A stretch of 32,000 nucleotides of DNA from NCBI GenBank assembly GCA_024277875.1, contig JAJRUI010000107.1, forward strand, positions 1-32,000, in the 5' to 3' direction. The notes below the pieces were generated by a model. It saw only the letters and a list, made by a program, of their open reading frames with translations, was not told where the DNA came from and did not search any database. The stretch is from Deferrisomatales bacterium. Its GTDB lineage: Bacteria; Desulfobacterota; Deferrisomatia; Deferrisomatales; Deferrisomataceae. A program made the position numbers and the translations under genes. Positions 7,729-25,676 of the stretch are shown here, piece by piece. Each line of letters begins with the position of its first letter. Positions within the stretch are counted from its first letter, which is position 1.

Positions 7729-8313
7729 CTACTGGACCACCGACAGGTCGCCGCCGCTCCACCGGCGGAACAGGTCGTGTTCCACGCCCAGGGCGTCCAG
7801 GGCCTTGCCCACGGTCTGGTCCACAATCTCCCGGATCGTCTTGGGCCGGTGGTAGAACGCGACCATCGGGGGCAGGATCACGGCGCCCAGGTCGGCGCAC
7901 TTGCGCAGGATCTCCAGGTGTCCCTTGTGCAGCGGCGTCTCCCGGAACAAGATCACCAGCCGCCGCCGCTCCTTGAGGGTCACGTCCGCGGCGCGCACCA
8001 GCAGGTTCTCGTTGTACGAGTTGGCGATCGCGGACGCGGTCTTCACCGAGCACGGCGCCACCACCATGCCGTGGGTCAGGAACGACCCGCTGGCGATCGC
8101 AGCGCCCACGTCCTCCACGTCGTGGCAAACGTCGGCCAGGGCCTCCACCTGCTCCACGGTGTGGTCGCTCTCGAGCACGATGTTGCGGCGGCTCGCCTTC
8201 GACAGCACCAGGTGGGACTCCACGTCCGCCTCCCGGAGCACCTCCAGGATCCGGATTCCGTACTGGGGGCCGGTGGCCCCCGAGATGCCGACGACGATCC
8301 GTTTGCGCGCCAT
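7729..8313 (-). CDS. ubiX: UbiX flavin prenyltransferase (prFMN synthase), 194 aa
   Basis: The start was moved to the ATG at 8313 (GGGAGAGGA upstream). Motifs: MARKRIVVGISGATGPQYG, VVAPCSVKTASAIANSY, RERRRLVILFRETPLH, ILPPMVAFYHRPKT. Confidence 0.9.
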   Translation of the reverse strand: MARKRIVVGISGATGPQYGIRILEVLREADVESHLVLSKASRRNIVLESDHTVEQVEALADVCHDVEDVGAAIASGSFLTHGMVVAPCSVKTASAIANSYNENLLVRAADVTLKERRRLVILFRETPLHKGHLEILRKCADLGAVILPPMVAFYHRPKTIREIVDQTVGKALDALGVEHDLFRRWSGGDLSVVQ

Positions 8314-8347
8314 GTTCCTCTCCCGTCTGTAGCCGGCTTCCGAACAA

Positions 8348-8395
8348 GCGACCTGCTCCGCGCCCCACGGGTGGGGTTTTTGAGCATCCTGGTCG
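8348..8395. repeat. Palindromic intergenic repeat, copy C (REP-like family)
   Basis: GCGACCTGCTCCGCGCCCCACGGGTGGGGTTTTTGAGCATCCTGGTCG. It shares CCCCAYGGRNGGGGTTTTT-[C/G]AGCA[T/G]CCTG with the copies at 16803-16853 and 28256-28296. It lies in the ubiD3-ubiX gap. Confidence 0.5.
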
Positions 8396-8396
8396 T

Positions 8397-9734: not shown

Positions 9735-9738
9735 GCCC

Positions 9739-9996
9739 CTACCGCCACTCGGGTGGGATCTTGTCGATCCGCTCCACCACCCGCACCGACCACGGCTGGC
9801 CCACCCACTGGCCGCGGCCGAGCCGGGGCCACAGGCGGTCCGGATACCGGTCCGGGTCGGACGAGACCACCGCACGCACGCACCGGCACGCGTACTTTGC
9901 CCGGCCGGCCGTGAGGTCGCGCAGCACCATCTCGGTCTCCTGGTCCTGGGGCACCTCGTCCAAATCGCCCAGAAAAAACGTGTCGTATTCGGTCAT
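9739..9996 (-). CDS. Small 85-aa protein; size and position fit the 10-kDa gamma subunit of phenylphosphate carboxylase
   Basis: The ATG at 9996 has GGAGA 7 nt upstream. Third-position G/C is high. It sits between two UbiD paralogues. The assignment rests on size and context only; I do not recall the reference sequence. Confidence 0.5.
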   Translation of the reverse strand: MTEYDTFFLGDLDEVPQDQETEMVLRDLTAGRAKYACRCVRAVVSSDPDRYPDRLWPRLGRGQWVGQPWSVRVVERIDKIPPEWR

Positions 9997-10026
9997 GGGT
10001 CTGTCTCCGTTTCGGGTCGCGGTGGG

Positions 10027-11475
10027 TCAGTCCGTGAAGCCGTAGCTCTTCCAGTTGGACAGGACCTTCTCCCGGACGTCCTCCGGGTACACGTTGTTGA
10101 ACGACACCAGGATCGGCTTGTCCGACGGCTTCCAGTCCCGGGGGAACAGGCAGTCGAACATCACCTTGGCCCCCCGGCCCCACTTGCGCTCCTCGGGGGA
10201 CGCGAACGGGTTCAGGGGCGTTCCCAGGTGGTTCCGGTAGATGTGGATGTCCGTGGCCGGGTTGCACTTGGTGCACAGGGCGTGAATCACCTCGTCCTTG
10301 TTGTAGATGTCGGTCTTCTCGTCCACCACCACCACCATGTGGAACCACGGGCCGAGCTTGCTGCCGAACACCAGCTGGGCCACCTGGCTCGCGATGCCGC
10401 TGTAGGCGTGGGGCACGCCGACCACCACCAAGTGGTGGGTGGACTCGGGCCACATGTACACCCCGGTCACCGGGATGCCCTGGCTCCGGAGCAGCTTCTC
10501 CATCTCGAGCCCCAGGGAGAACGACCTGAGCAGCTGCCCCTCGTCGGTGGGAACCCCCATGTTGGACACGGTCAGCACCGGGCGCTTGCGCCGGGTGATC
10601 GCCCGCACCCGGTACACGGTACGGGGCTCCCGGGGGGACGTGCGGTACCCGGTGTACTCCCCGAACGGCGCCTCCTCGAGTTCGACGTTGGGCAGGATCT
10701 CGCCCTCGATCACGATCTCGGCGTGGGCCGGCACCATCAGGTCGTTGGTCTCACATTTGACCACCTCGACTGCCTCGCCCATCAGCTGGCCGCAGAACTG
10801 GTCCTCGGGGATCGGGGACGGCGCGCATGCCGCGATCCCGGCCAGGGGGTCCATGCCGATCACCGTGGCGAACGGCATCGGTTCGTTGCGGGGCACGGCC
10901 TTGTTGTGGAACCATTTGCCCATGTCCGAGAACGGCAGCACCGGCCCGACCATGGTCTTCTCGTCGAACACCATCTGGCGGTACATGCCCCAGTTGATCT
11001 CGTCGCTGTCCGGGTCCTTGGCCACGATCATGTGCCAGGTGCACAGGTACCGGCCGCCGTCCCCGTCGTGGACCATGGGGCCGGGCAGGTCGAACAGGTT
11101 GACGTCGTCGCCGGTGACGACCACCTCCTTGACCGGCGCCCCGTCGGACGGGACCACCTTGGGCGGCACCGGCTCGCCCCGGTCGGTGCGTTCCACGTAC
11201 ACCTTGCCGATCTCGGGGATCGACGCGTCCGCGTCGAGCCCCAGGGACAGGGCCAGCTTGCGGTAGGTGGCCAGGGGCGCGCCCAGGGCCTCGAACTCCG
11301 GGTAGTCCTTGATCTTCTTGAAGTACGGCGACGGGCCCTTGCGCTCGCACACCAACCGCACGATCGCGCCCAGTTCCAGGTCCCAGTCCACCTCCTGCTC
11401 CACGGTGACCAGGTCACCGGCCCGGTCCAGGGCCTTCATGAACTCCCGGTTGTCCTTGTAATACGTGTGCGCCAT
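10027..11475 (-). CDS. UbiD-family large subunit of a phenylphosphate-carboxylase-like enzyme (alpha/beta type), 482 aa
   Basis: The start was set at the ATG at 11475 (AGGAG 8 nt upstream); the track start GTG overlaps the ribosome-binding site. UbiD blocks: GGRYLCTW, NWGMYR, PFATVIGMDP, APFGEYTGY. It is adjacent to the KdsC-like delta-subunit gene. Confidence 0.85.
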   Translation of the reverse strand: MAHTYYKDNREFMKALDRAGDLVTVEQEVDWDLELGAIVRLVCERKGPSPYFKKIKDYPEFEALGAPLATYRKLALSLGLDADASIPEIGKVYVERTDRGEPVPPKVVPSDGAPVKEVVVTGDDVNLFDLPGPMVHDGDGGRYLCTWHMIVAKDPDSDEINWGMYRQMVFDEKTMVGPVLPFSDMGKWFHNKAVPRNEPMPFATVIGMDPLAGIAACAPSPIPEDQFCGQLMGEAVEVVKCETNDLMVPAHAEIVIEGEILPNVELEEAPFGEYTGYRTSPREPRTVYRVRAITRRKRPVLTVSNMGVPTDEGQLLRSFSLGLEMEKLLRSQGIPVTGVYMWPESTHHLVVVGVPHAYSGIASQVAQLVFGSKLGPWFHMVVVVDEKTDIYNKDEVIHALCTKCNPATDIHIYRNHLGTPLNPFASPEERKWGRGAKVMFDCLFPRDWKPSDKPILVSFNNVYPEDVREKVLSNWKSYGFTD

Positions 11476-11541
11476 CAGCGGCACTCCTTTCGGCGGGTGA
11501 AGGGGCGCGATCTCCCCGTGAGTCGGCGGTTCCCGGGGCGC

Positions 11542-12084
11542 TCAGCCCCAGCCCATGTTCGAGACCTTGTCCACCAGGGGCTGCCACCGGCCCTGGGCCC
11601 GCAGGATGAACTCGGCGAGTTCCCTGAGCATGCCCTGGCCGCCGGCCCGGCGGGTGACCAGGTGGGCGACGTCCTTGACCTCGGGCGCGCCGTTGGCCGG
11701 GGACACGGCGAACCCGACCCGGCGCATCGCGCCGATGTCGATGATCTCGTCGCCCACGTAGCACACCTCCTCGAGGTCGATCCCGAGCTCTGCGATCAGC
11801 TCCTGCATCTTGGTCCACTTGTCCTTGGCCATGTACACGCGCTTGATCCCGATCTCCTCGGCCCGGGCCAGCACGATCTTGGACTTGCGGGTCATCAGGG
11901 CCACCTCGATCTTGCTCATCATCAGGGCGTTGGCCCCGAACCCGTCGTCGTGGTGGAACGCCTGGAACTTCTCACCGGCCTCGTTGAACAGCACCGTGCC
12001 GCTGGTGAGCACGCCGTGCACGTCGAGCACCACCGCCTGGACCCGCTTGGCCCGTTCGATCGCGTCCATGAAGTCGTAAGCCAT
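11542..12084 (-). CDS. ppcD: KdsC-like HAD protein, phenylphosphate-carboxylase delta-subunit type, 180 aa
   Basis: Colinear with E. coli KdsC (recalled). LDVHGVLTSG corresponds to LDVDGVLSDG, AFHHDDGFG to AFNVRDGYG, and YVGDEIID to YVGDDLID. It sits between two UbiD paralogues, as the delta-subunit gene does in the known ppc cluster. Confidence 0.75.
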   Translation of the reverse strand: MAYDFMDAIERAKRVQAVVLDVHGVLTSGTVLFNEAGEKFQAFHHDDGFGANALMMSKIEVALMTRKSKIVLARAEEIGIKRVYMAKDKWTKMQELIAELGIDLEEVCYVGDEIIDIGAMRRVGFAVSPANGAPEVKDVAHLVTRRAGGQGMLRELAEFILRAQGRWQPLVDKVSNMGWG

Positions 12085-12169
12085 CGGTTTCGGTCCCTTT
12101 CCCGGCCGCCGGCCGTCGTTCGTCGGGGTGCGGGCAACGCGCCCGGCACCCGCGGTTTCCCCGTCCGCG

Positions 12170-13582
12170 TCAGTCGAGCCCCAGTTCCGCCCACCGGGCC
12201 TGAATCCGCTCGAGTACCTCCGCGGACATCTCCACCTGCACCGGCTTGTCCTCCCACTCGAACGGCAGGGTGGCGTCCATGATGATCCGGGAGGTGATGA
12301 ACTTGTTCACCTTGTCGTGGAGCGCCGGGTCCAGCGGGGTGGACCGGCCCCGGTGGATGATCTGGGTGCTGCGCTCCGGGTCGTACCGGGTGGCCAGGGC
12401 CCACCACACCCGGGGCAGGTCGTCGGCCCGGATGTCGTCGTCCACGATGATCAGCCCCTTGAGGCCGTAGGTGCAGGTGTTGCTGGCGATGACGGCCGCG
12501 GCCACCTGGTTCGAGTGGCCCGGGTACATCTGCTTCACCGACACGATCGCCCAGAACCGGCCGCACGCCTCGGGGGGCATGTACACCGACTGGATCCCCC
12601 GGATCCCCATCCGGGTCAGCTCGGTCCACAGGGTGGCGTTGCGCACGAACGCGAGCATCATGTGGTTGTCGTTGACCGGACGGCCCACCGACGCGGCTAG
12701 CAGGATCGGGTCGTCGCGGTGGTAGATCCGGTGCACGTCGATCGCGGGTTTGGGCACCTGTTTGTAGATCTCTTCGGTGTAGTACCCGGTGTACTCCCCG
12801 AACGGCCCCTCGAGCCGGGGGTTGTCCCCATCGATGTACCCTTCGAGCACGATCTCCGCCGTTGCCGGGATCGGCAGGCCCGTGAGCGGCGCCTTGACGA
12901 TCTCCACGGGCTCGCCCCGCAGGGTGCCGACCACGTCGTACTCGTCCGCGTTCTCCACCATGGCGCTGCCCGCGAGCATCAGCAGGGGGTCGCACCCCAC
13001 CACCACGCAGATCGGCATCTTCTGGCCGGCCTTGCGGTACTTCTGGAGGATCCGGTCGCCCCGCTTGCCCTTGAGGATCTGGGCGCCCACGGTGTTCCGG
13101 TCGAGCACCTGGCTCCGGTAGGTGCCCAGGTTGATCTCCCCGGTCTCCGGGTCCTTGACCACCATGAAGCACGCGGTGCCGATGTACCGGCCGCCGTCCT
13201 TCTCGTAGAACTTGGGCGCGGGCAGCTTGTACAGGTCCACGTCGTCGCCCTCGATCACGTTCTCGAACACGGGCCCGGTGTCCACCTCCCTGGACCGGAT
13301 CACCTCGCCGATCGAGAGCTTCATCCACTCGTAGCTCAGGTCGCACATGCTCAGGTGGGGCGGCTTGCCCAGGGCCCGGGCCAGGCGCTTGGTGTTGCTG
13401 TACGCGCCGAACATCACCCGGCCGATGCTGTCCCTGACGTTCTCGAACAGCAGGGCGGGCCCGTCCCGCTCCTCCACCAACTTGGCGATGTGGGACATCT
13501 CCAGGTCCCAGTCCACCTCGGCGGAAACCCGTTTGAGGTCGCCCCCTTCCTCGCACTGCGCGATGAAATCCCGAAGATCCAT
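12170..13582 (-). CDS. UbiD-family large subunit of a phenylphosphate-carboxylase-like enzyme (alpha/beta type), 470 aa
   Basis: The start was moved to the ATG at 13582 (GGGAGG 7 nt upstream; MDLRDFIAQCEEGGDLKRV is a typical UbiD N-terminus). Blocks: GGRYIGT, NLGTYR, PICVVVGCDP, GPFGEYTGYY. Confidence 0.85.
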   Translation of the reverse strand: MDLRDFIAQCEEGGDLKRVSAEVDWDLEMSHIAKLVEERDGPALLFENVRDSIGRVMFGAYSNTKRLARALGKPPHLSMCDLSYEWMKLSIGEVIRSREVDTGPVFENVIEGDDVDLYKLPAPKFYEKDGGRYIGTACFMVVKDPETGEINLGTYRSQVLDRNTVGAQILKGKRGDRILQKYRKAGQKMPICVVVGCDPLLMLAGSAMVENADEYDVVGTLRGEPVEIVKAPLTGLPIPATAEIVLEGYIDGDNPRLEGPFGEYTGYYTEEIYKQVPKPAIDVHRIYHRDDPILLAASVGRPVNDNHMMLAFVRNATLWTELTRMGIRGIQSVYMPPEACGRFWAIVSVKQMYPGHSNQVAAAVIASNTCTYGLKGLIIVDDDIRADDLPRVWWALATRYDPERSTQIIHRGRSTPLDPALHDKVNKFITSRIIMDATLPFEWEDKPVQVEMSAEVLERIQARWAELGLD

Positions 13583-13633
13583 GTCGCTGCCTCCCGGTAC
13601 CCTCGATGGTTTGTGATGAACCCGCGTTTGATT

Positions 13634-13656
13634 GTCAAGGATAGCCGCGCCTTGAC
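13634..13656. promoter_or_regulatory. Inverted repeat GTCAAGG-N9-CCTTGAC in the LysR/ppc divergent region
   Basis: Perfect 7-bp arms at 13634-13640 and 13650-13656. The arms contain TTGACA (minus strand) and TTGACC (plus strand) hexamers. Confidence 0.35.
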
Positions 13657-13669
13657 CCCGAAGCAATTC

Positions 13670-13690
13670 ATATGTTTTTATGCAACATAT
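13670..13690. promoter_or_regulatory. AT-rich dyad ATATGTT-N7-AACATAT, candidate LysR-type regulator box
   Basis: Perfect 7-bp arms in the most AT-rich part of the 143-bp divergent intergenic region, 36 bp upstream of the LysR start codon. Confidence 0.45.
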
Positions 13691-13725
13691 AACCAAAACT
13701 ATGAGCCTGGGGGCAGAGGAGTCCG

Positions 13726-14649
13726 GTGATCAACCTCAACCAGCTGCGGGTGTTCCACGAGGCCGCCCGGTGCCAGAACTTCAGCCAGGCGGCCCGGAAC
13801 CTGTGCGTGACCCAGCCGGCCGTGACCGGCCAGATCCGGGCCCTGGAACGGGCGCTGGCCGTTCCCCTGTTCAAGCGCCGGGGCCGGCGCATGGCCCTGA
13901 CCGAGGCGGGCGCCCTCCTGTACCGCCGGGCCCGGGAGGTGTTCGAGCTGGAACGGGTGATGGAGCGGGAGATCGCCGAGGTCCGGGAACTCAAACGCGG
14001 GCTCCTGAAGATCGGTACCACCCAGACCTACGCCCGGTACCTGATGCCCGACCTGATCTCCCGGTTCCGGGCCGCGTACCCCCAGGTGAAGATCATCCTG
14101 GACGAGGGCAGCTCCCGGGACGTGTGCCGGAGCCTGCTGGACCTGCGGAACGAACTCGCCGTGGTGGCCGGCACGGACGGGATGAAGGGGGTGACGTTCG
14201 TTCCGTTCCGGGACGAAGAGGTGGTGCTGCTGGCGCACCCGGACGACCCCCTGGCCCGGGCGGGGCCCATCCGGTTCGCCGACCTGGACGGCCGCCTCGT
14301 GCTGATGCGGGAGGAGGGATCGAGCACCCACGCCCTGGTGCGGCGGTGCTTCGAGCGCCGGGGCCTGGCGCCCAACGTGCTCGTGGAGACGAGCAACGTG
14401 GACTTCATTAAGGAGATGGTGGAGAAGGGCGAGGGGGTCGCGTTCCTGGTGCGCTCTGCGATCCGACAGGAGGTGGCGTCGGGCCGGGTGCGGGTGGTGA
14501 CCGTGACCGACGAGGCGATGATCCTCCCCGTGTACATCGCACTGCCCGAGGGGCCGGCCCTGTCCCCGGCCGCCCGGGCGTTCCTCGAGATCCTGGAGAG
14601 CGAGAAGTCGGCCGGTGCCCGGGGGCCGGTGGGGGAGCCCCCGGGTTGA
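13726..14649 (+). CDS. LysR-family transcriptional regulator, 307 aa
   Basis: GTG start with GAGGAG 4 nt upstream. The N-terminal wHTH is NLNQLRVFHEAARCQNFSQAARNLCVTQPAVTGQIRALE. A LysR substrate-binding domain follows. It is divergent from the ppc-like operon. Confidence 0.9.
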   Translation: MINLNQLRVFHEAARCQNFSQAARNLCVTQPAVTGQIRALERALAVPLFKRRGRRMALTEAGALLYRRAREVFELERVMEREIAEVRELKRGLLKIGTTQTYARYLMPDLISRFRAAYPQVKIILDEGSSRDVCRSLLDLRNELAVVAGTDGMKGVTFVPFRDEEVVLLAHPDDPLARAGPIRFADLDGRLVLMREEGSSTHALVRRCFERRGLAPNVLVETSNVDFIKEMVEKGEGVAFLVRSAIRQEVASGRVRVVTVTDEAMILPVYIALPEGPALSPAARAFLEILESEKSAGARGPVGEPPG

Positions 14650-15030
14650 TCAGATCCCGTCGCCCGAGTACACGTCCGGGGCCACCCGCTCCGGCTCCTC
14701 GAAGGTCTCCACATGGGCGGGCCGCCGCACGCGCTGGACCGTGCCGTCGGGCCACCGGATCTCCCAGACCACCCCGCGGTCGCTGTGCTCGACCAGGTGC
14801 AGGTACCCGTTCCGCCGGGCCAGGGCGTACGGCAGCGCGACCTGGATCGCGTTGCGGGGGCACACCTTGACGCACGCGTAGCAGTCCCAGCACTCACCGG
14901 GCTCGCGCAGACGGGAGCGCCCCCGGGCGAAGTCCTTGACCACGACGTCCCCGGGGCACACCCGGACGCAGGGCGGCTCGGGGCTCGCCCCGCAGCCGTC
15001 GCACGCTTTCCAGTCGATCACGGCGGGCAC
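14650..15030 (-). CDS. AprB-like iron-sulfur subunit (adenylylsulfate-reductase beta family), 126 aa
   Basis: GTG at 15030 with AGGAGG 6 nt upstream. MPAVIDWKACDGC...PPCVRVCPGD...EPGECWDCYACVKVCPRNAI is colinear with the AprB two-ferredoxin-cluster region, and the WEIRWPDGTVQR tail resembles AprB MWTVKFRNGT (recalled). Confidence 0.8.
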   Translation of the reverse strand: MPAVIDWKACDGCGASPEPPCVRVCPGDVVVKDFARGRSRLREPGECWDCYACVKVCPRNAIQVALPYALARRNGYLHLVEHSDRGVVWEIRWPDGTVQRVRRPAHVETFEEPERVAPDVYSGDGI

Positions 15031-16745
15031 GGCGCACCTCCTGTGGCCGGCCCGGCGGGGGAGGGCCGGAGCGGTCGCCGAAACGTGTGGATCCGCCCGT
15101 CCGGCGTGTACCGGGAGTTCACGAAACAGCGCCACTCGTCCCGGGGCTCCGGGTGGTCCAGGCGGGTCTGGTAGCCGGGCCACCGGGTCTCCTCGCGGGC
15201 CTCCAGGTGGGCCACCACGGCCCGGGCGGTGAGCACCCGGTCGCGCACCTCCGCGGCCAGGAGGCGCTGGTGGGGGTCCCGGCCGCAGAGTTCGGCCAGG
15301 TCGCCCTCAAGGGCCTCCAACTCGGCCCGGGCCTTTGCGAGCCGGCGGCCGTGGAGTTCGTAGAACGTGCTGTGTCCCCCGGCCCACTCGTCCATCACCC
15401 GCTGGAGGCGCTCGGTGGCGTCCGTGGGATCGAGGGCTCCCCCCCGGGCCGCGGGTTGCCCGAGGGCGCGGGCCCGCTCCTCCGTCTGTGCGTCCACGCG
15501 CGGCCCCGGCAGGGGCAGCGCCCCTGCCGCGATGTCGGCTGCTGCCGATCGGGCCGCGATGAACCCCTCCACCCACGCCCCGCTCACGTACTTCTTCGGG
15601 GCACCGCCGGTCACGTCGCCGGCCGCGTACAGCCCGGGCACGGTGGCCCGCCGGCCCCCGTCTACCCACAACCCGCTGCCCGTGTGGCCGCCCAGGATGT
15701 ACGGGCCGCTCGTGGAGATCGTGACGGTCGCGCCGCCGGCGTCCAGGCCCTCGGCCGCCCACAGCGCGACCTGGGCCGGCGTCATGTCCAGGTACGCGCC
15801 GAGGACGTCGTCCCTGCCGCCGGCACCGGTCTGCCCCAGCCGGAGCACCACGGGGCCCCGGCCGGCCTTGCACTCCTCCAGCAGGGCCCGGAGCCGCTGG
15901 GGGGTGGTGAGCCGGTCGGTGTTCCACGCCCGGGCGTACCGGTCGTGGAACCGCTCGCCGAGCAGGTTTTCCTCCCGGCCGCCGAACGTCTGCGCCAGGG
16001 TTCCGGTGGGCGCTGCGGTGTGGAGGATCCGGGTCGGGACGAACCGCATCTCCAGGGTGGTCAACTCGGCGCCGGCCCGCAGGGCCGCTGCGTAGCCCGC
16101 GCCCGTGTTGAACGGGCAGTACCACATCCGGTTGCGGGCGTCGCCCCGGTTCGGAGTCCGGTACAGCCCTGCGGCACCGCCCGTGGCCAGGATCACGGCC
16201 CGCGCCCGGACCTCGAGCAGTTCCCCCGTGCGCACCCCCAGGAAGTAGGCGCCCCGTACCGCGCCGTCCCGGACGCGCAGGTCCACCAGGGCGTGCCTGT
16301 GGACCACCCGGGCCCCGCAGCCCCGTACCCGGCGGGCCAGGATCGGCTTGAGGCTCTCCCCGAAGATCTGTATCGAGCGGGGACCCTTTGGGAGCGGCCG
16401 GCCGCGGCCGTCCCTCGGGATCGGCAGGCCCCACGACTCGACTCGGTGGGTGGCGCCGTTGATCTGCTCGGCCAGGGAGCGCACGAGGTCTTCGCGCATC
16501 ACGCCGTGGGCGTCGCGGCGCACGGAGGCCACGTAGTCGTCCACCGCCACTCCCTCGGGCAGGTACGCGTTGATCGCGTTGAGCCCCATGGCCAGGCAGC
16601 CGGACCGGCTGACGTGGGCCTTGTCCACCAGGGTGACGTCCAGGTGGGGCGCCACCTCCCGGGCCTCCACCGCAGCGGCACACCCGGCCGCACCGCCCCC
16701 CACCACCAGCAGGTCGGTATCCAGGACGTCGACATGCGTTTTCAT
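15018..16745 (-). CDS. AprA-like FAD flavoprotein (adenylylsulfate-reductase alpha family), 575 aa
   Basis: It has the DLLVVGGGAAGCAAA dinucleotide fold. It is colinear with recalled Desulfovibrio AprA through VDKA..RSG...GLNAIN, RMWYCPFNTGAGY (compare RAWYPVWNAGSTY), LEMRFVPTR, GGHTGSG, and the C-terminal EETRWPGY...WRCFVNSRYTPDGRIHTFRRP (compare ESRYPGFY...WKCFVNSKYDP..KIFKKP). It is about 90 aa shorter than canonical AprA. Confidence 0.85.
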   Translation of the reverse strand: MKTHVDVLDTDLLVVGGGAAGCAAAVEAREVAPHLDVTLVDKAHVSRSGCLAMGLNAINAYLPEGVAVDDYVASVRRDAHGVMREDLVRSLAEQINGATHRVESWGLPIPRDGRGRPLPKGPRSIQIFGESLKPILARRVRGCGARVVHRHALVDLRVRDGAVRGAYFLGVRTGELLEVRARAVILATGGAAGLYRTPNRGDARNRMWYCPFNTGAGYAAALRAGAELTTLEMRFVPTRILHTAAPTGTLAQTFGGREENLLGERFHDRYARAWNTDRLTTPQRLRALLEECKAGRGPVVLRLGQTGAGGRDDVLGAYLDMTPAQVALWAAEGLDAGGATVTISTSGPYILGGHTGSGLWVDGGRRATVPGLYAAGDVTGGAPKKYVSGAWVEGFIAARSAAADIAAGALPLPGPRVDAQTEERARALGQPAARGGALDPTDATERLQRVMDEWAGGHSTFYELHGRRLAKARAELEALEGDLAELCGRDPHQRLLAAEVRDRVLTARAVVAHLEAREETRWPGYQTRLDHPEPRDEWRCFVNSRYTPDGRIHTFRRPLRPSPAGPATGGAPCPP

Positions 16746-16802
16746 CCGAGACCCTCGTCGTTGTCGCGGCCGGCCCGCAGGCCCTGCCGCCGGCGGGATA
16801 GG

Positions 16803-16853
16803 CTCAGCAGGTCGCTGAAAAACCCACGGACGGGGTTTTCAGCATCCTGTTAG
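16803..16853. repeat. Palindromic intergenic repeat, copy A (REP-like family)
   Basis: CTCAGCAGGTCGCTGAAAAACCCACGGACGGGGTTTTCAGCATCCTGTTAG. The core stem is CTGAAAAACCC/GGGTTTTCAG with a 7-nt loop. It overlaps the TAA stop of the SiR-like gene and fills the SiR-aprA gap. Confidence 0.55.
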
Positions 16854-18136
16854 TCCCAGGCTGCGATCACCTCCAGCAGTTCGTCCAGGGACGCCCTTTC
16901 CACGACCGCCCGCCCCAGGCCGGTTCCGTCCCGGCGCAACAGGTCGAACCGGGGCGTCCGGTCGCCGGTCGCGTCCCGGACCAGCCCCGAGCACAGCACC
17001 CCGGCGTCCGTCACCTGGGGCTGTGCGCAGGAGTTGGGGCAGCCGCACACGGCCCAGGAAAAGGCACGTCCCCGGGGGCCGAGGCTGTCGAGCACCCGGC
17101 CGGCCACCTCCCGGGTGGGCGCCAGGGCCTTGGGGCAGGTCCGGGCGCCCGGGCACACCTGCATCGCCACGGTTCCGTCGCCGTGCTGCCCGGCCCAGCC
17201 GGCCGCGTCCAGTTCCCGTTCGAGGGCCGGCCGTCCGGCCGGGGACTCGGGGTGCAGGGCCACGTCCTGGGACGGAAGCAGGGTCAGCTGCCCTGCGCAG
17301 CGGCGTTCGGCGATCCTCGCCAGCCGGGAGAACCGGCTGGCGGACAGGTCGCCCGCGAACACCCGCACCACCACGGGGCGGGTCCGGTCCCCGGCCGGCC
17401 GGGGACCGGCGGCCTCTGCCGGCCGAGGTCGCGGCTCCGGTGCCGGCAGTTCCCCGTCCACGAGGGAGAAAAACGCCTCGCGCCCGACCGAGGCGACCAG
17501 GTGCTTGAGCCGTTTTCCGGGCGGCACGTGCTCCCGGTACACGCGCACCACGGCACCGATCACCGGCAGGACCCGCTCCTCCGGCAGCGCGCTGGCGTAC
17601 GGAAGCCCCTCGGCCGGCGCCCGGCCGAGGCCCCCGGCGAGCCACACGTCCCAACGGGCCTGGCCGCCCACCGAGCCCGCGTACACGAGCCCCACGTCCT
17701 GGATCAGGTGCCGGGCGCCGTCGTACCCGGCGTCCACGCCGACCTTGAACTTCTTGGGCAACCCCTCGAACGCCGGGTTTCCCGTGCAGCGCGCGTGGAT
17801 GCAGCGGGCCAGGGCCACAGCAGGGGCGCGGCCGGGGCCTGCCGGCGTGCTCACCGCGACCCCGCGGACCGTGCCGCCGCAGGCGCCCCGGGACGTGAGC
17901 CCGGCCGGGCCGAGGCGGCCCACGGCGTGTTCGAGGCGGTCCCGGCGCAGCCCGTGCAGTTCCACGCTCATCCGGGTGGTCAGGTGCAGGTGCCCGTCGG
18001 CCAGCTGGTCCGCGACCGCGCACAGCGTCCGGACCTGGCCCGCGGCCAGGACGCCCCCGGGCACCTTGACCCGCAGCATGTACAGCCCGGTCTGGGTCTG
18101 CTCGTAGATCCCGTTCGAGCGAAGGTCGGTATCCAT
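16850..18136 (-). CDS. Nitrite/sulfite-reductase-family siroheme [4Fe-4S] hemoprotein (small SiR-like), 428 aa
   Basis: The start was moved to the ATG at 18136; upstream of it lies AT-rich non-coding DNA. The first repeat is GLYMLRVKVPGGVL...LHLTTRMSVELHGL...ACGGTVRGV. The C-terminal cluster-binding motif is CPGARTC ... CGCPNSC (CX5C...CXCX3C). Confidence 0.8.
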   Translation of the reverse strand: MDTDLRSNGIYEQTQTGLYMLRVKVPGGVLAAGQVRTLCAVADQLADGHLHLTTRMSVELHGLRRDRLEHAVGRLGPAGLTSRGACGGTVRGVAVSTPAGPGRAPAVALARCIHARCTGNPAFEGLPKKFKVGVDAGYDGARHLIQDVGLVYAGSVGGQARWDVWLAGGLGRAPAEGLPYASALPEERVLPVIGAVVRVYREHVPPGKRLKHLVASVGREAFFSLVDGELPAPEPRPRPAEAAGPRPAGDRTRPVVVRVFAGDLSASRFSRLARIAERRCAGQLTLLPSQDVALHPESPAGRPALERELDAAGWAGQHGDGTVAMQVCPGARTCPKALAPTREVAGRVLDSLGPRGRAFSWAVCGCPNSCAQPQVTDAGVLCSGLVRDATGDRTPRFDLLRRDGTGLGRAVVERASLDELLEVIAAWD

Positions 18137-18170
18137 CGGTCTCGATAGGTGTAGGGTTTCGGGGTGTATC

Positions 18171-18199
18171 AAGATAGTGTACACTATTTTATATGTCAA
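18171..18199 (-). promoter_or_regulatory. Sigma70-type promoter for the SiR-aprA-aprB operon
   Basis: The minus strand reads TTGACA (18199-18194), N17, TATCTT (18176-18171), about 35 nt upstream of the ATG at 18136, inside a conspicuously AT-rich 154-bp island. Confidence 0.55.
18174..18187. promoter_or_regulatory. Perfect 14-bp palindrome ATAGTGTACACTAT overlapping the promoter spacer and -10 (candidate operator)
   Basis: The sequence is self-complementary, and it overlaps the -10 hexamer of the predicted promoter. Confidence 0.5.
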
Positions 18200-18290
18200 G
18201 AATATGATTTCAAATAGTCGTGATAAAAGATGTGTTTTGCGGGGAGGGGGGGACGGAGCGGTCCGGGCAGGAACTGGGGCGTTCGAGCGG

Positions 18291-19019
18291 TCAGGAGCCG
18301 GGAACCGGGGGCGGGGCGGACGGGCAGTGGTGCTCCCAGCCCAGGATCGTGGCGGCGCCGACGGTGTCGGCGCCGTAGGCGAGGACCCGGACGCCCGGGG
18401 GGAGCTCGGGTTCGATCCGGTCCCACTCGCCGTGGGTGAGGGACGTGCCGCCCACCAGGACCACACCGCAGCGGCGGACCGCCTCGGGCACGGGGGCCAC
18501 CCGGGGTACGGGTCCGCCGGCCGGCCCGGCAGCGGACAGCACCAGCACCGGGTTTTCCGGCAGCAGGGCGTCCGCCATGCACGGGTTGGCCGCGGCTAGA
18601 CACACGCAAGGGCACGCCGGAGGGGGGTGGGCGAGCCGCTCCCGCAGGCGCGCGGAGCACCCGTCGGCCCCGGCCGTTTCGCACAGCAGCACCGGGGGCG
18701 GCCGCTCCCCGGTGAAGGCGAGCACCGCGTTCAGGACGGCCAGCAGCCGGGCCCGCCCCGCGGGGGTGTCGGCGGGCTGCGCGAGCAGCTGGTCCAGGGT
18801 CCCCTCTAACCGGGCCACCAGGGGGGACAGCCCGAACCCCCCGGCGCCGCCCACCGTGGCCCGCAGCACGAAGCGGCCTTCCGGCGGCGGCAGGCAGTGG
18901 AGCCCCGGCCACCGGTCCGGCACGGTGGTCACCCGAACCGGCTCGGAGCCCAGCCGCTCCCCGGCCACCCGGGCCCGCAGCCCGGCCCGCAGCCGTTCGA
19001 ACGCGGGGCGTACGGTCAC
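18291..19019 (-). CDS. Cys-rich hypothetical protein, possibly DUF364/Rossmann-like (putative metal-chelation) family, 242 aa
   Basis: The GTG at 19019 overlaps the TGA of the upstream gene (GTGA). The C-terminal VVLVGGTSLTHGEWDRI...VRVLAYGAD resembles the DUF364 block (D-V-V-x-I-T-G-S-T-L-V-N-G-T-L). Cysteine cluster: CETAGADGC ... CPCVC ... C. The family call is weak. Confidence 0.55.
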   Translation of the reverse strand: MTVRPAFERLRAGLRARVAGERLGSEPVRVTTVPDRWPGLHCLPPPEGRFVLRATVGGAGGFGLSPLVARLEGTLDQLLAQPADTPAGRARLLAVLNAVLAFTGERPPPVLLCETAGADGCSARLRERLAHPPPACPCVCLAAANPCMADALLPENPVLVLSAAGPAGGPVPRVAPVPEAVRRCGVVLVGGTSLTHGEWDRIEPELPPGVRVLAYGADTVGAATILGWEHHCPSAPPPVPGS

Positions 19020-20746
19020 GGCCCGGGCCGTTCGTAGGGCCAGCCCACCACGCCGCCCTCCAGGAACCGCACGTTGTCCAGCCCGGCGCCCTGGAGGATC
19101 CGCTGGCCCTCGTACCCCCGCAGCCCGATCTTGCACAGGAGGACCACCGGCCGGTCCTTCGGGATCTCGTCCGTGCGGGCCCGCAGGGTGCCCAGGGGCA
19201 CCAGCCGGGCCCCGTCGAACGGCAGCGCCCGGTGTTCGGCCGGGCTGCGCACGTCCACGAGCACCGGGGGCTCCCCGGAGCGGCGTTCTTCCCGGTACGC
19301 GGCGGGATCCACCGCGCTGGCCCACCCGTCGAGCTTGTTGCGGGCGGCGTTGGCAGCGGTAAGCAGCAGGTCCATGGGCGGGGCGTAGGGTGGCGCGTAC
19401 ACCAGGTCCAGGTTGGCCACCTGGTCCACGGTCATGCCGGTGGACACCGGGGCCACGGCCGCGTCCACCCGGCGGGCCACGTCCCCCCGGCCCACCCCCT
19501 GGACCCCCAGGACCCGCCGGGACCCCCGGTCCACCACGATCTTGAGGAGGATCGGGGCCGCGTCCTCCATGAAGTGGGGCTTGTCGCCGCCCACCACCAG
19601 GGCGGTCAGCACGTCGAACCCGTGCTGGCGCGCCTCGGCCTCTCCCAGGCCGGTGCGGGCCACGGTGAGGTCGAACAGCCGCATCACCAGGGAACCGGCC
19701 ACCCCAGGGAACGTGTCCACGTCCCCGAGCACCGCGTTGGTGCCAGCCACCCGCCCCTCCTTGTTGGCGGTGGAGCCCAGGGGCACCCAGCACGGTTTGC
19801 CGCTGACCACGTGGACCTTCTCGGCGCAGTCCCCGGCCGCGTAGATGTCGGGGTCGCTGGTCCGCATGTGGGGGTCCACCCGGATCGCTCCGGAGGGCCC
19901 GAGTTCGAGTCCGGCGGCCTCGGCCAGGGCCACCTCGGGCCGCACCCCGGTGGCCACCAGCACCAGGTCTGCGGGCAACTCGCCCGCGGTGGTGCGCACG
20001 GCCGTGGCCCGGGCGCCGTCCCCCACGATCGCCTCCACCGAGGTCCCGGTGAGGATCCGGACCCCCTGGGAGTCGGCGTACCGGGACAGGTGGCCGGCCA
20101 GCTCCGGATCCACCGGCGGGAGCACCTGGGGCAGGCGTTCCACCACGGTCACCAGGTCGCCCCGTTCCCGGAGGGCCTCGGTCACCTCGAGCCCGATCAG
20201 GCCCGCGCCCACCACCACGGCCCGCAGCGGCCGGGCGTCCTGGAGCCCGCCGATGTCCTTGTCCCGCAGCAGTTCGGCGATCTCGTCCAGGGCCGCCCGC
20301 AGGCGGCGGGCGTCCTCGTACGTTTTGAGGAAGAACACGTTGGGCCGGTCCATGCCGGGCACCGGCGGCGCCACCGGCCGGGCGCCGGTGGCGAGCACCA
20401 GCTTGTCGTAGGGCAGGGTGCCGGTCTCGCCGGTCTCCAGGTTGCGCACCGCGACCCGCTTGCTGGCCCGGTCGATCGAGACCGCCTCGGTGCGCAGGAG
20501 CAGCCGCACATCCTTGACGTCGTCGAAGTAGTCCCGGTCCCGCAGCTTGCCGGACGGGGTCTTCATCAGCTCGTCCAGGGCCTTGACCCGGCCGCTCAGG
20601 TAGTACGGGAACCCGCACGCGCCGTAGCTCGCGTGGGGACCCCGTTCGAGCACGGTGATCTCGGCCCCGGGATCCAGGCGGCGGGCGCGGGCCGCCGCCT
20701 TGGGACCGGCCGCCACCCCCCCGATGATCACGATCCGTCTGCCCAC
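19016..20746 (-). CDS. CoA-disulfide-reductase-family FAD/NAD(P) oxidoreductase with C-terminal rhodanese domain (Npsr/CoADR-RHD type), 576 aa
   Basis: The start was moved to the GTG at 20746 (GGGAGGAG 5 nt upstream). Motifs: RIVIIGGVAAGPKAA, the redox Cys context SYGACGFPYYLSG, a second dinucleotide fold VVVGAGLIGLE, AAGDCA, and the rhodanese active-site loop LLCKIGLRG. Confidence 0.85.
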   Translation of the reverse strand: MGRRIVIIGGVAAGPKAAARARRLDPGAEITVLERGPHASYGACGFPYYLSGRVKALDELMKTPSGKLRDRDYFDDVKDVRLLLRTEAVSIDRASKRVAVRNLETGETGTLPYDKLVLATGARPVAPPVPGMDRPNVFFLKTYEDARRLRAALDEIAELLRDKDIGGLQDARPLRAVVVGAGLIGLEVTEALRERGDLVTVVERLPQVLPPVDPELAGHLSRYADSQGVRILTGTSVEAIVGDGARATAVRTTAGELPADLVLVATGVRPEVALAEAAGLELGPSGAIRVDPHMRTSDPDIYAAGDCAEKVHVVSGKPCWVPLGSTANKEGRVAGTNAVLGDVDTFPGVAGSLVMRLFDLTVARTGLGEAEARQHGFDVLTALVVGGDKPHFMEDAAPILLKIVVDRGSRRVLGVQGVGRGDVARRVDAAVAPVSTGMTVDQVANLDLVYAPPYAPPMDLLLTAANAARNKLDGWASAVDPAAYREERRSGEPPVLVDVRSPAEHRALPFDGARLVPLGTLRARTDEIPKDRPVVLLCKIGLRGYEGQRILQGAGLDNVRFLEGGVVGWPYERPGP

Positions 20747-20869
20747 GATGACTCCTCCCGGCGGGCGTCCCCCGCCACACGATGCGAAACAGGCAAGCAA
20801 CGCCCGTTCTGATGCGCTGGCCGGGAAGTAGTCACAGAAAAAAGCGTGAAATCGGGCGGCGGGCCCGGG

Positions 20870-21937
20870 TCAGGCGGGGGGGAGTACCACGGTGAGCAGG
20901 TCGGGCAGGGTGTCGAGAACGAAGTCCGGCCGGTGGGGGCCGAGCCCCCGTAGCACGCTCTCGCCGCCGGACACCACGGCCACCGGCACGCCCGCGGCCC
21001 GGGCCGCGCCCAGGTCGGCCAGGCTGTCCCCGACCATGAGGGCTTCGTCGGCAGGGCAGCCCAGGCGGTCCAGGGCCATCTCGAGCCCGTGGCCGGCCGG
21101 CTTCAGATGCGGGGCGTCGTCCCGGGTGACCACGGCGGCCAGGTGCTGGTCGAGCCCCAGGCGGCCGAGGACCCGGTCCGTGCCCGCCCGGCCGATGTTG
21201 GTGACCAGGGCCAGTCGGCACCCGGCCCGGGACAGGCCAGCCAGGGTGTCCCGGGCGCCCGGTCGCAGACTCCACCGCTGCTCGGCGTCCAGGTCGTACC
21301 GGTCGTAGATCGGCCGCAAGGCCGCCTCGATCCTCTGGCGCAGCGCGCCGGACCCCGCCGCTTCCAGGGCTCTTTGCCGGATCCCGGCGTAGTTCTGCGC
21401 GGCCACCCGGTCCGGCGGGATCCCGAGGGCTGTCACGGCCCGGCGCAGGTCGGCCTCGGCCCGTTCCAGGTCCCACTGGAAGTCCACCAGGGTGCCTTCG
21501 AGGTCGAACAGGACCGCGCGGTGGCGGGGATTGCCTGGAGCGGGGAACAGCAGCTCCAGCGCGTCCCCCTGGGCGAGGTCGAGGGCGCCCCGCAGCCCCA
21601 TCCCGGCCACCACCTCCACCACGTCCTCCGGGTGGCCGGCCACCCGGGGCACCACCACCACGCCCGCGAACACGCCGCCGATCCGGACCCGGTACGCGTC
21701 GGCCGAGCAGAACGCCGGGTCGGGGGGCACCAGCCGGAAGTCCGGCGTCCGGGCCCGGACGGCGGCCCACGCGGCCCGGTCCGCCGGGCCGGCGGGGTGG
21801 AGGTTCAACGTGCCGGGGAACGGGTCGATCCGGGCCCCGGCACGCAACTGCCCGGTCACCCAGTCGAGCCGCACGAAGCCGGCTGCCTCCCGGCAGCCGG
21901 CCCGCACGGTTCCGGTGAGTCGAACGTCAGCGTCCAC
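20870..21937 (-). CDS. Fusion protein: N-terminal archaeal-type (CTP-dependent) riboflavin-kinase-like RibK/DUF120 domain plus C-terminal class-IA HAD phosphatase domain, 355 aa
   Basis: GTG at 21937. The N-terminal GTVRAG..GFVRL...PFPGTLNL...GVVVVPRVAGHPEDVVEVVA...QGDALELLF is colinear with recalled MJ0056. HAD motifs: FDLEGTL (I, D-x-E), LVTN (II), LKP (III), GDSLADLGAA (IV). Confidence 0.78.
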   Translation of the reverse strand: MDADVRLTGTVRAGCREAAGFVRLDWVTGQLRAGARIDPFPGTLNLHPAGPADRAAWAAVRARTPDFRLVPPDPAFCSADAYRVRIGGVFAGVVVVPRVAGHPEDVVEVVAGMGLRGALDLAQGDALELLFPAPGNPRHRAVLFDLEGTLVDFQWDLERAEADLRRAVTALGIPPDRVAAQNYAGIRQRALEAAGSGALRQRIEAALRPIYDRYDLDAEQRWSLRPGARDTLAGLSRAGCRLALVTNIGRAGTDRVLGRLGLDQHLAAVVTRDDAPHLKPAGHGLEMALDRLGCPADEALMVGDSLADLGAARAAGVPVAVVSGGESVLRGLGPHRPDFVLDTLPDLLTVVLPPA

Positions 21938-21946: not shown

Positions 21947-22465
21947 TCAGTGCGGGTAGGGCGCGTGGGAGTCCGGCAGGGGGGTCTCCAGGGGCCAGCT
22001 CTCCCCCCGGTACCGGATCACGGGTTTGGCCCCGTCCCGGGTCCACCACCCGGTCACGAGTCCCAGGAACAGGTCGTGGGTGCCGCAGGCGGCCACCTTG
22101 AGCACCCGGCACTCGTACGAGGCCGCGGCCCCCCCGACCCGGGGGCTCTCGACGCTGTCGCTAGGGACGAGTTCCAGGCCGAGTTTCCGGAGCTTGTCCG
22201 GGTCGTTCCCCGGGATCGTGCCCGCCAGGATCGCCTGGCGGTCCTGGGCCGCGTCCACCACGTTGAGGGTGAAGTTGCGCCCCTCGTTCACCAGCCGGTG
22301 GGCCGTGGACCCGGGCTTCAGGTACACCACCGCGATCACCGGGTCGTAGGACACCCACATGGTGGTCACGGCCACCACGTCGGTGGCACCGCCGGCCCGG
22401 ACGGCCAAGAACACCTCGGGGCACGGCAGGCTAGAGAGCAGCTCGTCTCGTCGGGCGGATTGCAT
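21947..22465 (-). CDS. Flavin-reductase-like (FMN-binding split-barrel) protein, 172 aa
   Basis: The ATG at 22465 has GAGGAG 5 nt upstream, 28 nt after the ppsB stop. The pattern VVAVTTMWVSYDPVIAVVYL...STAHRLVNEGRNFTLNV...D is typical of PF01613-type flavin reductases. Confidence 0.75.
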   Translation of the reverse strand: MQSARRDELLSSLPCPEVFLAVRAGGATDVVAVTTMWVSYDPVIAVVYLKPGSTAHRLVNEGRNFTLNVVDAAQDRQAILAGTIPGNDPDKLRKLGLELVPSDSVESPRVGGAAASYECRVLKVAACGTHDLFLGLVTGWWTRDGAKPVIRYRGESWPLETPLPDSHAPYPH

Positions 22466-22493: not shown

Positions 22494-23591
22494 TCAGGTG
22501 GACGCGCACTTGTTTTCGAAGTTTACCTTCACCCCGGCCATCAGCCCGCCGATGATCGATTCCATGGCCGTCTTGGGTTTGTCGGTCACGGCCTTGGTCT
22601 GTTTGCGGGACCAGACCGTTTCGGGCCGTGCCTGGAGGATCACGATGCTGTCCGGGAACGGCAGGTCCTCGTCCACGGCCCACTCCACGTCCATGGGCCG
22701 TCCGTAGTGCTTCTCGATCCGGCGGGCCAGTTCGGTGAGCTCCCGGATCTCCTCGTCGGTGATCGACGCCTTCTCCCGGTCCGGTTCCGGGACCGCCCGG
22801 ACCTGCACGCCCTCCTCGGACGACACCAGCAGGTACGCCTCGGGCTTGGGCACCACGTTCCTGCGGATCACGTCGAAGGTGACCTTGTCCACCAGGAAGT
22901 CGTCCGGGGTGATGTCCCCGGACACGACCCCCTCGCCGAACCCCCACGCCGCGTTGATCGCGACCTTGGACCGGTCGCCGTTGATCGGGTTCAGGGTGAA
23001 CAGCACGCCCGAGCTGCGGGCGTTGGCCATTTTCTGGATTCCCACCGAGATGCGCACGTTCTCGTGGCTGAACCCCTTCTCCTCCCGGTACGCGATCACC
23101 CGGTCGGTGAACAGGCTGGCCCAGCACGCCCGTACCTTGTCGACCACCGCGTCCTCGCCGACCACCCACAGGTAGGTGTCCTGGAGCCCGGCGAACGACG
23201 CGTCCGCCAGGTCTTCCAGGGTGGCGCTGGAGCGAACGGCCACGGGCAGGTCGCCGCCGCCGCTCCGGTCGCACAGCTCCCGGTACGCGAGGCGAATCGC
23301 GTTTTCCACCGGGCCGGGGATCGCCGTGGCGTGGATCATGCGGCGCACCTCCTGCCCCACCTCGTCCACGCACGCGCCGGAAGAGGTCTTTTGGAGCACC
23401 TTGCAGATTGGGTCCCGCAGCCCGGTCTCCACCAGGAAGTCGTAGTACGCGTCGGTGGTGACCGCGAACCCGGGGGGCACCCGGATGCCGGCGTGGATCA
23501 GTTCTCCCAGGCTCGCGCACTTGCCCCCGACCCGGGGGGAGTGCTCCGACCGGCACGTTTCGAACCACAGGATGGCGTGTTCGTCAGCCAT
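22494..23591 (-). CDS. ppsB: Phenylphosphate-synthase beta-subunit-like protein (PEP-synthase N-terminal ATP-grasp/PPDK_N domain only), 365 aa
   Basis: Motifs: GGKCASLGEL, PPGFAVTTDAY, VAVRSSATLEDLADASFAGLQDTYL, GVLFTLNP, GFGEGVVSG. It is a stand-alone nucleotide-binding domain placed right after the His-domain protein, as in the known pps system. The phenolic substrate is not provable from sequence. Confidence 0.82.
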   Translation of the reverse strand: MADEHAILWFETCRSEHSPRVGGKCASLGELIHAGIRVPPGFAVTTDAYYDFLVETGLRDPICKVLQKTSSGACVDEVGQEVRRMIHATAIPGPVENAIRLAYRELCDRSGGGDLPVAVRSSATLEDLADASFAGLQDTYLWVVGEDAVVDKVRACWASLFTDRVIAYREEKGFSHENVRISVGIQKMANARSSGVLFTLNPINGDRSKVAINAAWGFGEGVVSGDITPDDFLVDKVTFDVIRRNVVPKPEAYLLVSSEEGVQVRAVPEPDREKASITDEEIRELTELARRIEKHYGRPMDVEWAVDEDLPFPDSIVILQARPETVWSRKQTKAVTDKPKTAMESIIGGLMAGVKVNFENKCAST

Positions 23592-23595
23592 GGGA

Positions 23596-25431: not shown

Positions 25432-25533
25432 GGGGACCTCCTTCTGGAACGGGTGTGGAAAAACGAACGGGGTTTCGTGCCGTCGTCGCTGGACCGGTTC
25501 CGGGCCGGCACGGGCGCCTGAAAAAGATGAAAA

Positions 25534-25548: not shown

Positions 25549-25613
25549 AGGCGGTTTTTGCGGCATGTGTACTGAAACGCTGTTTAGCTGACGAGGCGGG
25601 TTCCCGTCAAAAA

Positions 25614-25629: not shown

Positions 25630-25676
25630 ATCTGGGCCTCCGGCTGCGTTTCGGCCCGTCCGGGCGCCCGCACAGG

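Follow-up and report, generated by a model that had tools for sequence, protein, structure and literature searches.

An AprAB-type (P)APS reductase and a small siroheme sulfite reductase form a probable assimilatory sulfur module beside phenol genes in a Deferrisomatales bacterium

The closest described relative of the enzyme studied here is the reductase of 3′-phosphoadenosine 5′-phosphosulfate (PAPS) from Methanothermococcus thermolithotrophicus (MtPAPSR; PDB 8A8O, Jespersen et al. 2023), which has the heterotetrameric flavin adenine dinucleotide (FAD)/[4Fe-4S] architecture of dissimilatory adenosine 5′-phosphosulfate (APS) reductases, serves sulfate assimilation with a preference for PAPS, and showed no reverse reaction that could be measured (PMC10322725). 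Other described systems that invite comparison are the canonical AprBA reductases (A. fulgidus, 1JNR/2FJA; D. gigas, 3GYX), the CysH-type thioredoxin-dependent reductases, and, for sulfite reduction, NirA/SirA (1ZJ8) and the plant sulfite and nitrite reductases. We compared these with a three-gene array in a 32,000-nt stretch of DNA from a Deferrisomatales bacterium (assembly GCA_024277875.1, contig JAJRUI010000107.1, positions 1 to 32,000; hereafter the window). An earlier note on this DNA had described the array as a siroheme sulfite reductase-like gene followed by aprA- and aprB-like genes in inverted order, lying within an aromatic catabolic island, and had proposed either a route from APS through sulfite to sulfide, assembled from dissimilatory-type components, or a redox module recruited to the aromatic pathway. 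The three genes probably form one sulfur-assimilation transcription unit, an assimilatory (P)APS-to-sulfite-to-sulfide module. The proposed route is thus supported in its essentials and refined in two respects, being read as assimilatory and as using PAPS more probably than APS.

The minus-strand array is composed of genuine genes. Its sizes and coordinates are as the earlier note had given them (Table 1), and the evidence for the genes comes from domain matches of the open reading frames (ORFs), third-codon-position GC content (GC3), and substitution rates. The aprA-like gene precedes the aprB-like gene and overlaps it by 13 nt, as had been noted, with the aprA stop codon beginning at 15018 and the aprB start at 15030. 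Window GC is 71%, and all three ORFs show the GC3 and codon-position GC pattern typical of real genes. Pfam domains are recovered at E-values of 1.7e-26 (FAD_binding_2), 7.8e-26 (NIR_SIR), and 5.5e-25 (NIR_SIR_ferr), together with Fer4 dicluster domains. The three module genes are under purifying selection, with dN/dS of 0.20-0.36 between the window and a close relative (GCA_054026035.1, locus L088).

The AprA-like protein belongs to a short clade that also contains MtPAPSR and is distinct from canonical AprA. It matches the NCBIfam model NF005331 ("adenylyl-sulfate reductase subunit alpha," 563 positions) with 585 bits, above the cutoff of 557, residues 2-549 falling on profile positions 2-543. 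With TIGR02061, the equivalog for canonical aprA, it stays at 333 bits, below the cutoff of 642. Its best solved structure is the MtPAPSR alpha subunit (8A8O_A, 571 aa; E 2e-139), where residues 7-548 align with chain positions 5-539; the two proteins, both of ~570 aa, are colinear over their whole length at roughly 50% identity. Matches to AprA of A. fulgidus (1e-91) and D. gigas (7e-65) are weaker, and against the window protein both carry several insertions. Residues 5-556 align with positions 18-631 of the 643-aa A. fulgidus AprA, which carries four extra segments (Af 299-305, 340-350, 408-424, and 495-511) that the window protein lacks. The length difference from canonical AprA, given in the earlier note as about 90 aa, is therefore ~70-90 aa, depending on the reference.

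This short length is a property of the clade rather than an anomaly of the locus. Thousands of relatives, ~555-600 aa long, were retrieved in a protein search, and clade members all fall in this range. Their sources are Bacillota (Carboxydocella, Natroniella, Iocasia), Nitrospirota, Manganitrophaceae, Chloroflexota, Myxococcota, Hydrothermarchaeales, and other groups; judged by name, most lie outside the taxa that we take to be sulfate reducers, and metagenome-assembled genomes of Thermodesulfobacteriota are included. We built a neighbor-joining tree from Kimura distances with 200 bootstraps, using 25 sequences of the short type, 16 of canonical AprA that the A. fulgidus protein had retrieved, MtPAPSR, and A. 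fulgidus AprA itself. The short clade, with the window protein and MtPAPSR inside it, separates from canonical AprA in 100% of bootstraps. Because its canonical sample covers only Archaeoglobus- and Chloroflexi-type lineages the tree is a limited one, and the split it shows agrees with the failed TIGR02061 score.

Gene order across the clade shows that the A-then-B arrangement is standard. We surveyed 80 loci from species-representative genomes (L005-L084) plus the window (81 loci), clustering every ORF no more than 7 kb from the AprA-like gene and identifying recurrent clusters by Pfam. An AprB-like ferredoxin of ~126 aa lies directly downstream of aprA on the same strand in 70/81 loci and upstream in none; two of the other 11 have a weaker AprB-like match just downstream, and the arrangement is present in all seven close homologue loci. 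ATP sulfurylase (Sat) comes directly after aprB in 46/81 loci, and an Rrf2 regulator lies upstream in 37/81. Genes found nearby include NIR_SIR proteins of the cluster that contains the window's sulfite reductase (24/81), TauE (9/81), ThiF/JAB sulfur-carrier genes (6-9 of 81), cysteine synthase (CysK, 7/81), APS kinase (CysC, 6/81), and O-acetylhomoserine sulfhydrylase (OAHS, 6/81). By contrast, the canonical locus of A. profundus (L090) reads sat-DUF6955-aprB-aprA-qmoA-qmoB-qmoC, in B-A order. The window pair thus falls within a characterized clade in which A-B order is the norm, and the premise of an inversion peculiar to this locus falls with it. Nor do the missing sat and qmo partners set the locus apart; no Qmo-like cluster turned up among the clade's neighbors, on which no dedicated Qmo or AprM queries were run.

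The AprB-like subunit retains the eight-cysteine ferredoxin pattern of its canonical counterparts (CX2CX7CX3CP and CX2CX2CX3CP) plus Trp48, and lacks their C-terminal extension. It scores 83 bits against the canonical aprB model TIGR02060 (cutoff 136), and a Pfam scan found no match to APS-reductase_C (PF12139), a tail that the 150-aa AprB of A. profundus has. Structure matches are better to dissimilatory AprB (3GYX_B, 5e-19; 1JNR_B, 3e-16) than to the beta subunit of MtPAPSR (8A8O_C, 2e-13), which at 104 aa is also shorter than the 126-aa window protein.

The catalytic residues are all kept, and the substrate pocket resembles that of MtPAPSR in part. From the A. fulgidus structures we take the residues of the FAD-sulfite adduct mechanism to be Asn74, Trp234, Arg265, Arg317, and His398. 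Their window equivalents are N59, W208, R239, R284, and H354, and the five positions are invariant in 25/25 short-clade sequences (24/25 at the Arg317 position) and in 16/16 canonical ones. The APS-binding pocket differs: Af Trp144-Gln145, a pair found in 15/16 canonical sequences, is replaced by Arg123-Ser124, matching Arg121-Ser122 of MtPAPSR. Modeling of that enzyme led to the proposal that K120, R121, and S122 hold the 3′-phosphate of PAPS, a group that Ser and Arg would accommodate and that would clash with the Gln145 found in APS reductases (PMC10322725). Across the 81-locus survey, 61 loci have a Trp-Asn pocket, with sat adjacent in 39 and cysC in none, and 17 loci share the Arg-Ser pocket with the window and MtPAPSR, cysC being adjacent in 6 of these 17 (6/17 vs. 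0/61; P = 5e-5, Fisher's exact test, several of the loci coming from related taxa). This suggests that the Arg-Ser versus Trp-Asn pocket tracks cysC versus sat neighbors.

The first gene of the array encodes a 428-aa hemoprotein that is best read as an assimilatory sulfite reductase (SiR). Pfam finds two stretches each of NIR_SIR_ferr and NIR_SIR, and the two cluster motifs named in the earlier note are present as VCPGARTC (CX5C) and VCGCPNSC (CXCX3C). The best solved relative is 1ZJ8 from M. tuberculosis (E 6.7e-26), deposited as "ferredoxin-dependent nitrite reductase NirA" and in fact, as we understand it, a sulfite reductase; the CX5C and CX3C cysteines, an LPKKFK motif, and the basic pocket motifs all align. 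The window protein thus shares with NirA/SirA and plant SiR/NiR the two NIR_SIR_ferr/NIR_SIR repeats, the CX5C...CX3C siroheme-[4Fe-4S] ligands, and the basic substrate-pocket motifs, and differs in being ~130 aa shorter (it lacks ~95 residues at the N-terminus and some of the C-terminus) and only ~27-30% identical. Its ~430-aa subgroup is typical of Desulfuromonadales and Geobacter, and we know of no biochemical characterization for it. Homologues of 425-450 aa, named "nitrite/sulfite reductase" by their sources, are abundant in Desulfuromonadales, Geobacteraceae, and Deferrisomatales. The subgroup is without an NCBIfam model of its own, and the 428-aa protein reaches none of the equivalogs CysI, Sir, and NirA; its top NCBIfam scores are 140 bits for CobG (cutoff 235) and 104 bits for NirA (cutoff 523). 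We rejected a CobG identity on that score and on genomic context.

Relatives of both proteins lie in sulfur-assimilation arrays. In Desulfuromonas sp. KJ2020 (L091), a 46%-identical SiR stands in the order PAPS_reduct (CysH)-PAPS_reduct (CysD)-CysN/C-SiR-PALP (CysK)-Cys_Met_Meta_PP x2, with OAHS coming after cysK. The closest independent AprA relative (L001/L005, 71% identical) lies in an array that reads SiR (432 aa, 50% identical)-OAHS-AprA-AprB-Prismane. Comparison of these two arrays indicates that the AprAB-type reductase holds the role and neighborhood of CysH in related cys operons. The two enzymes share the predicted step, reduction of (P)APS to sulfite for assimilation, and a corresponding place beside related SiR genes, but they are not homologous, CysH being a single-domain protein of the PAPS_reduct fold that uses thiol chemistry; the exchange appears to be a non-orthologous displacement.

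Two further observations concern these neighborhoods. A hybrid-cluster protein (Prismane) gene, which adjoins the KJ2020 cys array, recurs in three otherwise different genomes (L001, 12274-13921; L085, 2283-3914; L091, 12060-13679). In Nitrospirota (L049, 6030-8537, and related loci), the SiR beside the AprAB-like and Sat genes is fused to HEPN-like and C-terminal TusA domains in a protein of 835 aa.

The module would work as follows. Activated sulfate, more likely PAPS though possibly APS, would come from enzymes whose genes lie elsewhere in the genome. The alpha/beta (P)APS reductase, which we place in the distinct short clade that has the assimilatory enzyme of M. thermolithotrophicus as its type, would convert it to sulfite with an FAD and two-[4Fe-4S] architecture and N5-sulfite adduct chemistry like those of dissimilatory APS reductases. 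Electrons, we infer, would be supplied by a soluble donor of low potential, probably ferredoxin, and reach the FAD by way of both clusters in the 126-aa beta subunit. The small siroheme SiR would then turn the sulfite into sulfide for use in making cysteine and homocysteine, and in this lineage the AprAB-type enzyme would take the place of the CysH of related Desulfuromonas-type cys operons.

Likeness to MtPAPSR extends over subunit composition (an FAD alpha and a two-[4Fe-4S] beta subunit), the kept catalytic Asn, Trp, Arg, Arg, and His, the Arg-Ser pocket pair, common membership of a tree clade and an NCBIfam model, and an assimilatory genomic context. The window enzyme, whose activity is predicted, differs in its bacterial, GC-rich host, in having Pro at the position of Lys120, and in its partner, a monomeric siroheme SiR in place of the F420-dependent Fsr, and no ATP sulfurylase, APS kinase, or PAP-phosphatase gene is adjacent. 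Against canonical AprBA, the likenesses are the fold family, the residues of FAD-N5 chemistry, the eight-Cys ferredoxin, and AprB Trp48. The differences are the shorter alpha subunit with its four missing insertions, failure of both TIGR models, the absent PF12139 tail, A-B instead of B-A order without sat or qmo neighbors, Ser at the position of Gln145, and placement in a separate clade.

The module probably has its own regulated promoter, since a sigma-70-like site lies in the AT-rich gap upstream of the SiR gene (Table 1), and its −35 hexamer and TAnnnT −10 are conserved in the close relatives at L088/L089. A consensus scan of 14300-19200 found two promoter-like sites, where shuffled sequence led us to expect 0.1. 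Overlapping the spacer and −10 hexamer is a perfect 14-bp palindrome, ATAGTGTACACTAT, which is conserved in part in L088/L089 as ATAGTATATGCTAG; we infer only that it is a candidate operator. Rrf2 regulators, found upstream in many clade members, have no counterpart in the window. An Rfam scan of the whole window, in which a sulfur or S-adenosylmethionine riboswitch upstream of the module was sought, found no family at gathering score.

Several points weigh against an assimilatory module that uses PAPS. A tblastn search of the window with Sat, CysC, CysH, CysD, CysNC, CysK, OAHS, and QmoABC queries found no further genes (AprM was not searched for), in agreement with the absence of sat and qmo reported earlier; with no sat, cysC, cysDN, cysQ, or cysK in the window, the supply of APS or PAPS has to be assumed. 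The sole characterized clade member is archaeal and only ~50% identical, so that activity in the bacterial members is predicted. Pro122 stands in place of Mt Lys120, leaving two of the three residues proposed to hold the 3′-phosphate (R123 and S124), together with the absence of the Gln. The cysC association comes from six loci, three of them from Natroniella, and its data points are therefore not independent. The module is co-directional with the upstream pps, flavin reductase, riboflavin kinase, and CoA-disulfide-reductase-like genes, and read-through is possible. Its placement is also kept in a second genome, GCA_054026035.1, though this is a very close relative.

The rival that departs least from this reading keeps the assimilatory module and has the reductase act directly on APS, in a Sat-AprAB-SiR route without APS kinase. 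Such a route is likely for most short-clade members, given how often sat comes right after aprB and that cysC is mostly not in the neighborhood, and the Pro at the Lys120 position would fit it. Loci that share the window's exact KGPRSI motif point the same way, having cysK and SiR nearby and neither sat nor cysC. But the window pocket is Arg123-Ser124, as in the PAPS-specific enzyme, and is neither the Sat-linked Trp-Asn nor the canonical Trp-Gln type; the predicted clash of Gln145 with a 3′-phosphate, which Ser and Arg avoid (PMC10322725), and the Arg-Ser type of all six cysC-adjacent loci argue in the same direction. Direct use of APS by the window enzyme is therefore possible but unlikely. 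With an 8A8O-type pocket PAPS is the more likely substrate, and, if the module is assimilatory, we consider its use of PAPS probable. A dissimilatory or detoxifying role, with AprAB running in reverse from sulfite to APS or the pair serving as a respiratory (P)APS/sulfite reductase, would suit an architecture shared with dissimilatory APS reductases, which are reversible (PMC10322725), and published work has discussed AprAB as a means of detoxifying sulfite. It is nonetheless very improbable: we note no Dsr in the window, and no Qmo or Sat by the tblastn search that left AprM aside, and the clade loci, unlike canonical L090, showed no Qmo-like cluster in a survey run without Qmo or AprM queries. 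The MtPAPSR reverse reaction could not be measured (PMC10322725), AprB lacks the APS-reductase_C tail, and the accompanying SiR is a monomeric enzyme of assimilatory type with a relative in a cys operon. That last relative, and the occurrence of SiR near AprAB-like genes in 24 loci, also speak against reading the hemoprotein as a CobG-like protein or assimilatory nitrite reductase that adjoins the reductase genes by chance. Its best NCBIfam matches (CobG, the NirA family, and ferredoxin-nitrite reductase, all under cutoff) and the source name of its homologues lean toward this, but the scores are far under the curated cutoffs and 1ZJ8, labeled a nitrite reductase, is one that we take to be a sulfite reductase; we regard a nitrite reductase or CobG-like identity as scarcely credible.

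Position beside phenol genes is the remaining argument for a different role, and the earlier note had suggested recruitment to the aromatic pathway, for instance in anaerobic maturation of prenylated flavin mononucleotide (prFMN). The array does lie between pps-like and ppc-like genes, as that note had observed, and is co-directional with ppsAB and the flavin reductase, riboflavin kinase-HAD, and CoA-disulfide-reductase-rhodanese genes. The order also recurs in GCA_054026035.1 (L088, and likewise L089) as unknown-SiR-AprA-AprB-LysR-UbiD-HAD-UbiD-Phenyl_P_gamma-UbiD-UbiX, again with a 13-nt AprA/AprB overlap. L088 is, however, 87-97% identical to the window in nucleotide sequence, and the synteny therefore reflects one lineage and is not independent evidence; an independently conserved pps/ppc placement, being common only to these near-identical loci, was rejected. 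Among more distant orthologues (63-72% identical) with visible neighbors, none has pps, ppc, or UbiD genes: in addition to the sulfur-assimilation array at L001/L005, they read AprA-AprB-Prismane (L085) and OAHS-AprA-AprB (L086) or lie beside prmA and housekeeping genes (L002-L004), and a 3-kb contig (L087) shows AprA-AprB with unannotated neighbors only. The catalytic residues of the (P)APS reductase and the cluster motifs of the SiR are all kept, the module carries its own sigma-70-like promoter, the clade-wide neighborhood is one of sulfur assimilation, and a literature search gave no paper linking apr-like genes to phenylphosphate clusters. Recruitment for prFMN maturation of a UbiD-type phenylphosphate carboxylase, or for sulfur from sulfated or sulfonated phenolics, is accordingly highly improbable. 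We think it very unlikely, too, that the module is tied to anaerobic phenol catabolism more broadly, by pps-flavin read-through, by reducing PAPS or sulfite released from sulfated or sulfonated phenolics, or as a low-potential redox partner of UbiD/prFMN; what favors this tie is adjacency in two near-identical genomes only. On the assimilatory reading, the pps/ppc position would be a lineage-specific juxtaposition and not a functional link, and nothing in the locus bears on how prFMN matures anaerobically.

Table 1. Features of the sulfur module and its surroundings (positions in the window)
Feature	Position	Strand	Remarks
Small siroheme-[4Fe-4S] sulfite reductase (NirA/SirA superfamily), 428 aa	16850..18136	-	Module gene 1; Pfam NIR_SIR + NIR_SIR_ferr
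AprA-like FAD subunit, 575 aa, ATG start	15018..16745	-	FAD_binding_2; NF005331
AprB-like subunit, 126 aa, GTG start, two [4Fe-4S] motifs	14650..15030	-	Fer4 dicluster domains
Sigma-70-like promoter TTGACA-17 nt-TATCTT	18171..18199	-	AT-rich 154-bp gap upstream of SiR gene
Perfect 14-bp palindrome ATAGTGTACACTAT	18174..18187	-	Overlaps spacer and −10 hexamer of SiR promoter
207-aa ORF, good GC3 signal	18291-18912	-	Upstream of SiR gene
CoA-disulfide-reductase-like flavoprotein with C-terminal rhodanese domain	19016-20800	-	Between flavin genes and sulfur module
CTP-dependent (archaeal-type) riboflavin kinase-HAD phosphatase fusion and flavin-reductase-like protein	20870-21937, 21947-22465	-	Directly downstream of pps-like genes
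Two pps-like genes (PEP-utilising/PPDK_N)	22494-25683	-	High-coordinate side of module
LysR regulator	13726-14649	+	Convergent with aprB, divergent from ppc/UbiD operon
ppc-like genes: three UbiD paralogues, HAD protein, UbiX	7729-13696		Low-coordinate side of module
UbiX	7729-8367		Low-coordinate end of ppc-like genes

The genes around the module belong largely to other functions. The LysR gene, whose stop codon abuts that of aprB (14649/14650), scores best against a "selenium metabolism-associated LysR" model (193 bits, under the cutoff of 250). CysB models score below that, and we rejected CysB as its identity. It more likely controls ppc, since it diverges from that operon and converges on aprB. 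The flavin reductase, the riboflavin kinase-HAD fusion, and UbiX look like a flavin-supply set for prFMN-dependent UbiD carboxylases. The CoA-disulfide-reductase-rhodanese protein (344 bits, under the family cutoff of 579) could be a persulfide or polysulfide reductase. The 207-aa ORF upstream of the SiR gene matched nothing in Pfam or NCBIfam; L088/L089 have a called gene at the same position, where the stretch has 87% nucleotide identity to the window. In comparison with the sister genome L088, dS is higher for the sulfur module (14650-18136; 0.26-0.31) than for LysR and UbiD (10027-14649; 0.17), which may hint at a separate history or recombination. Farther away, the aromatic island's genes for a sigma-54 response regulator and a PAS histidine kinase flank one for a GHMP-kinase-fold protein (4028-5359, minus strand) that is weakly similar to beta-ribofuranosylaminobenzene 5′-phosphate synthase.

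The locus is a typical bacterial member of a clade with one characterized enzyme, the 2023 methanogen PAPS reductase, here paired with an uncharacterized ~430-aa SiR subgroup. Within this short clade, the Arg-Ser versus Trp-Asn pocket may serve as a sequence marker that separates PAPS from APS users. More broadly, AprA and AprB labels and A-B gene order in organisms that do not reduce sulfate would be neither a sign of dissimilatory sulfur metabolism nor an anomaly, and instead mark a widespread assimilatory clade.

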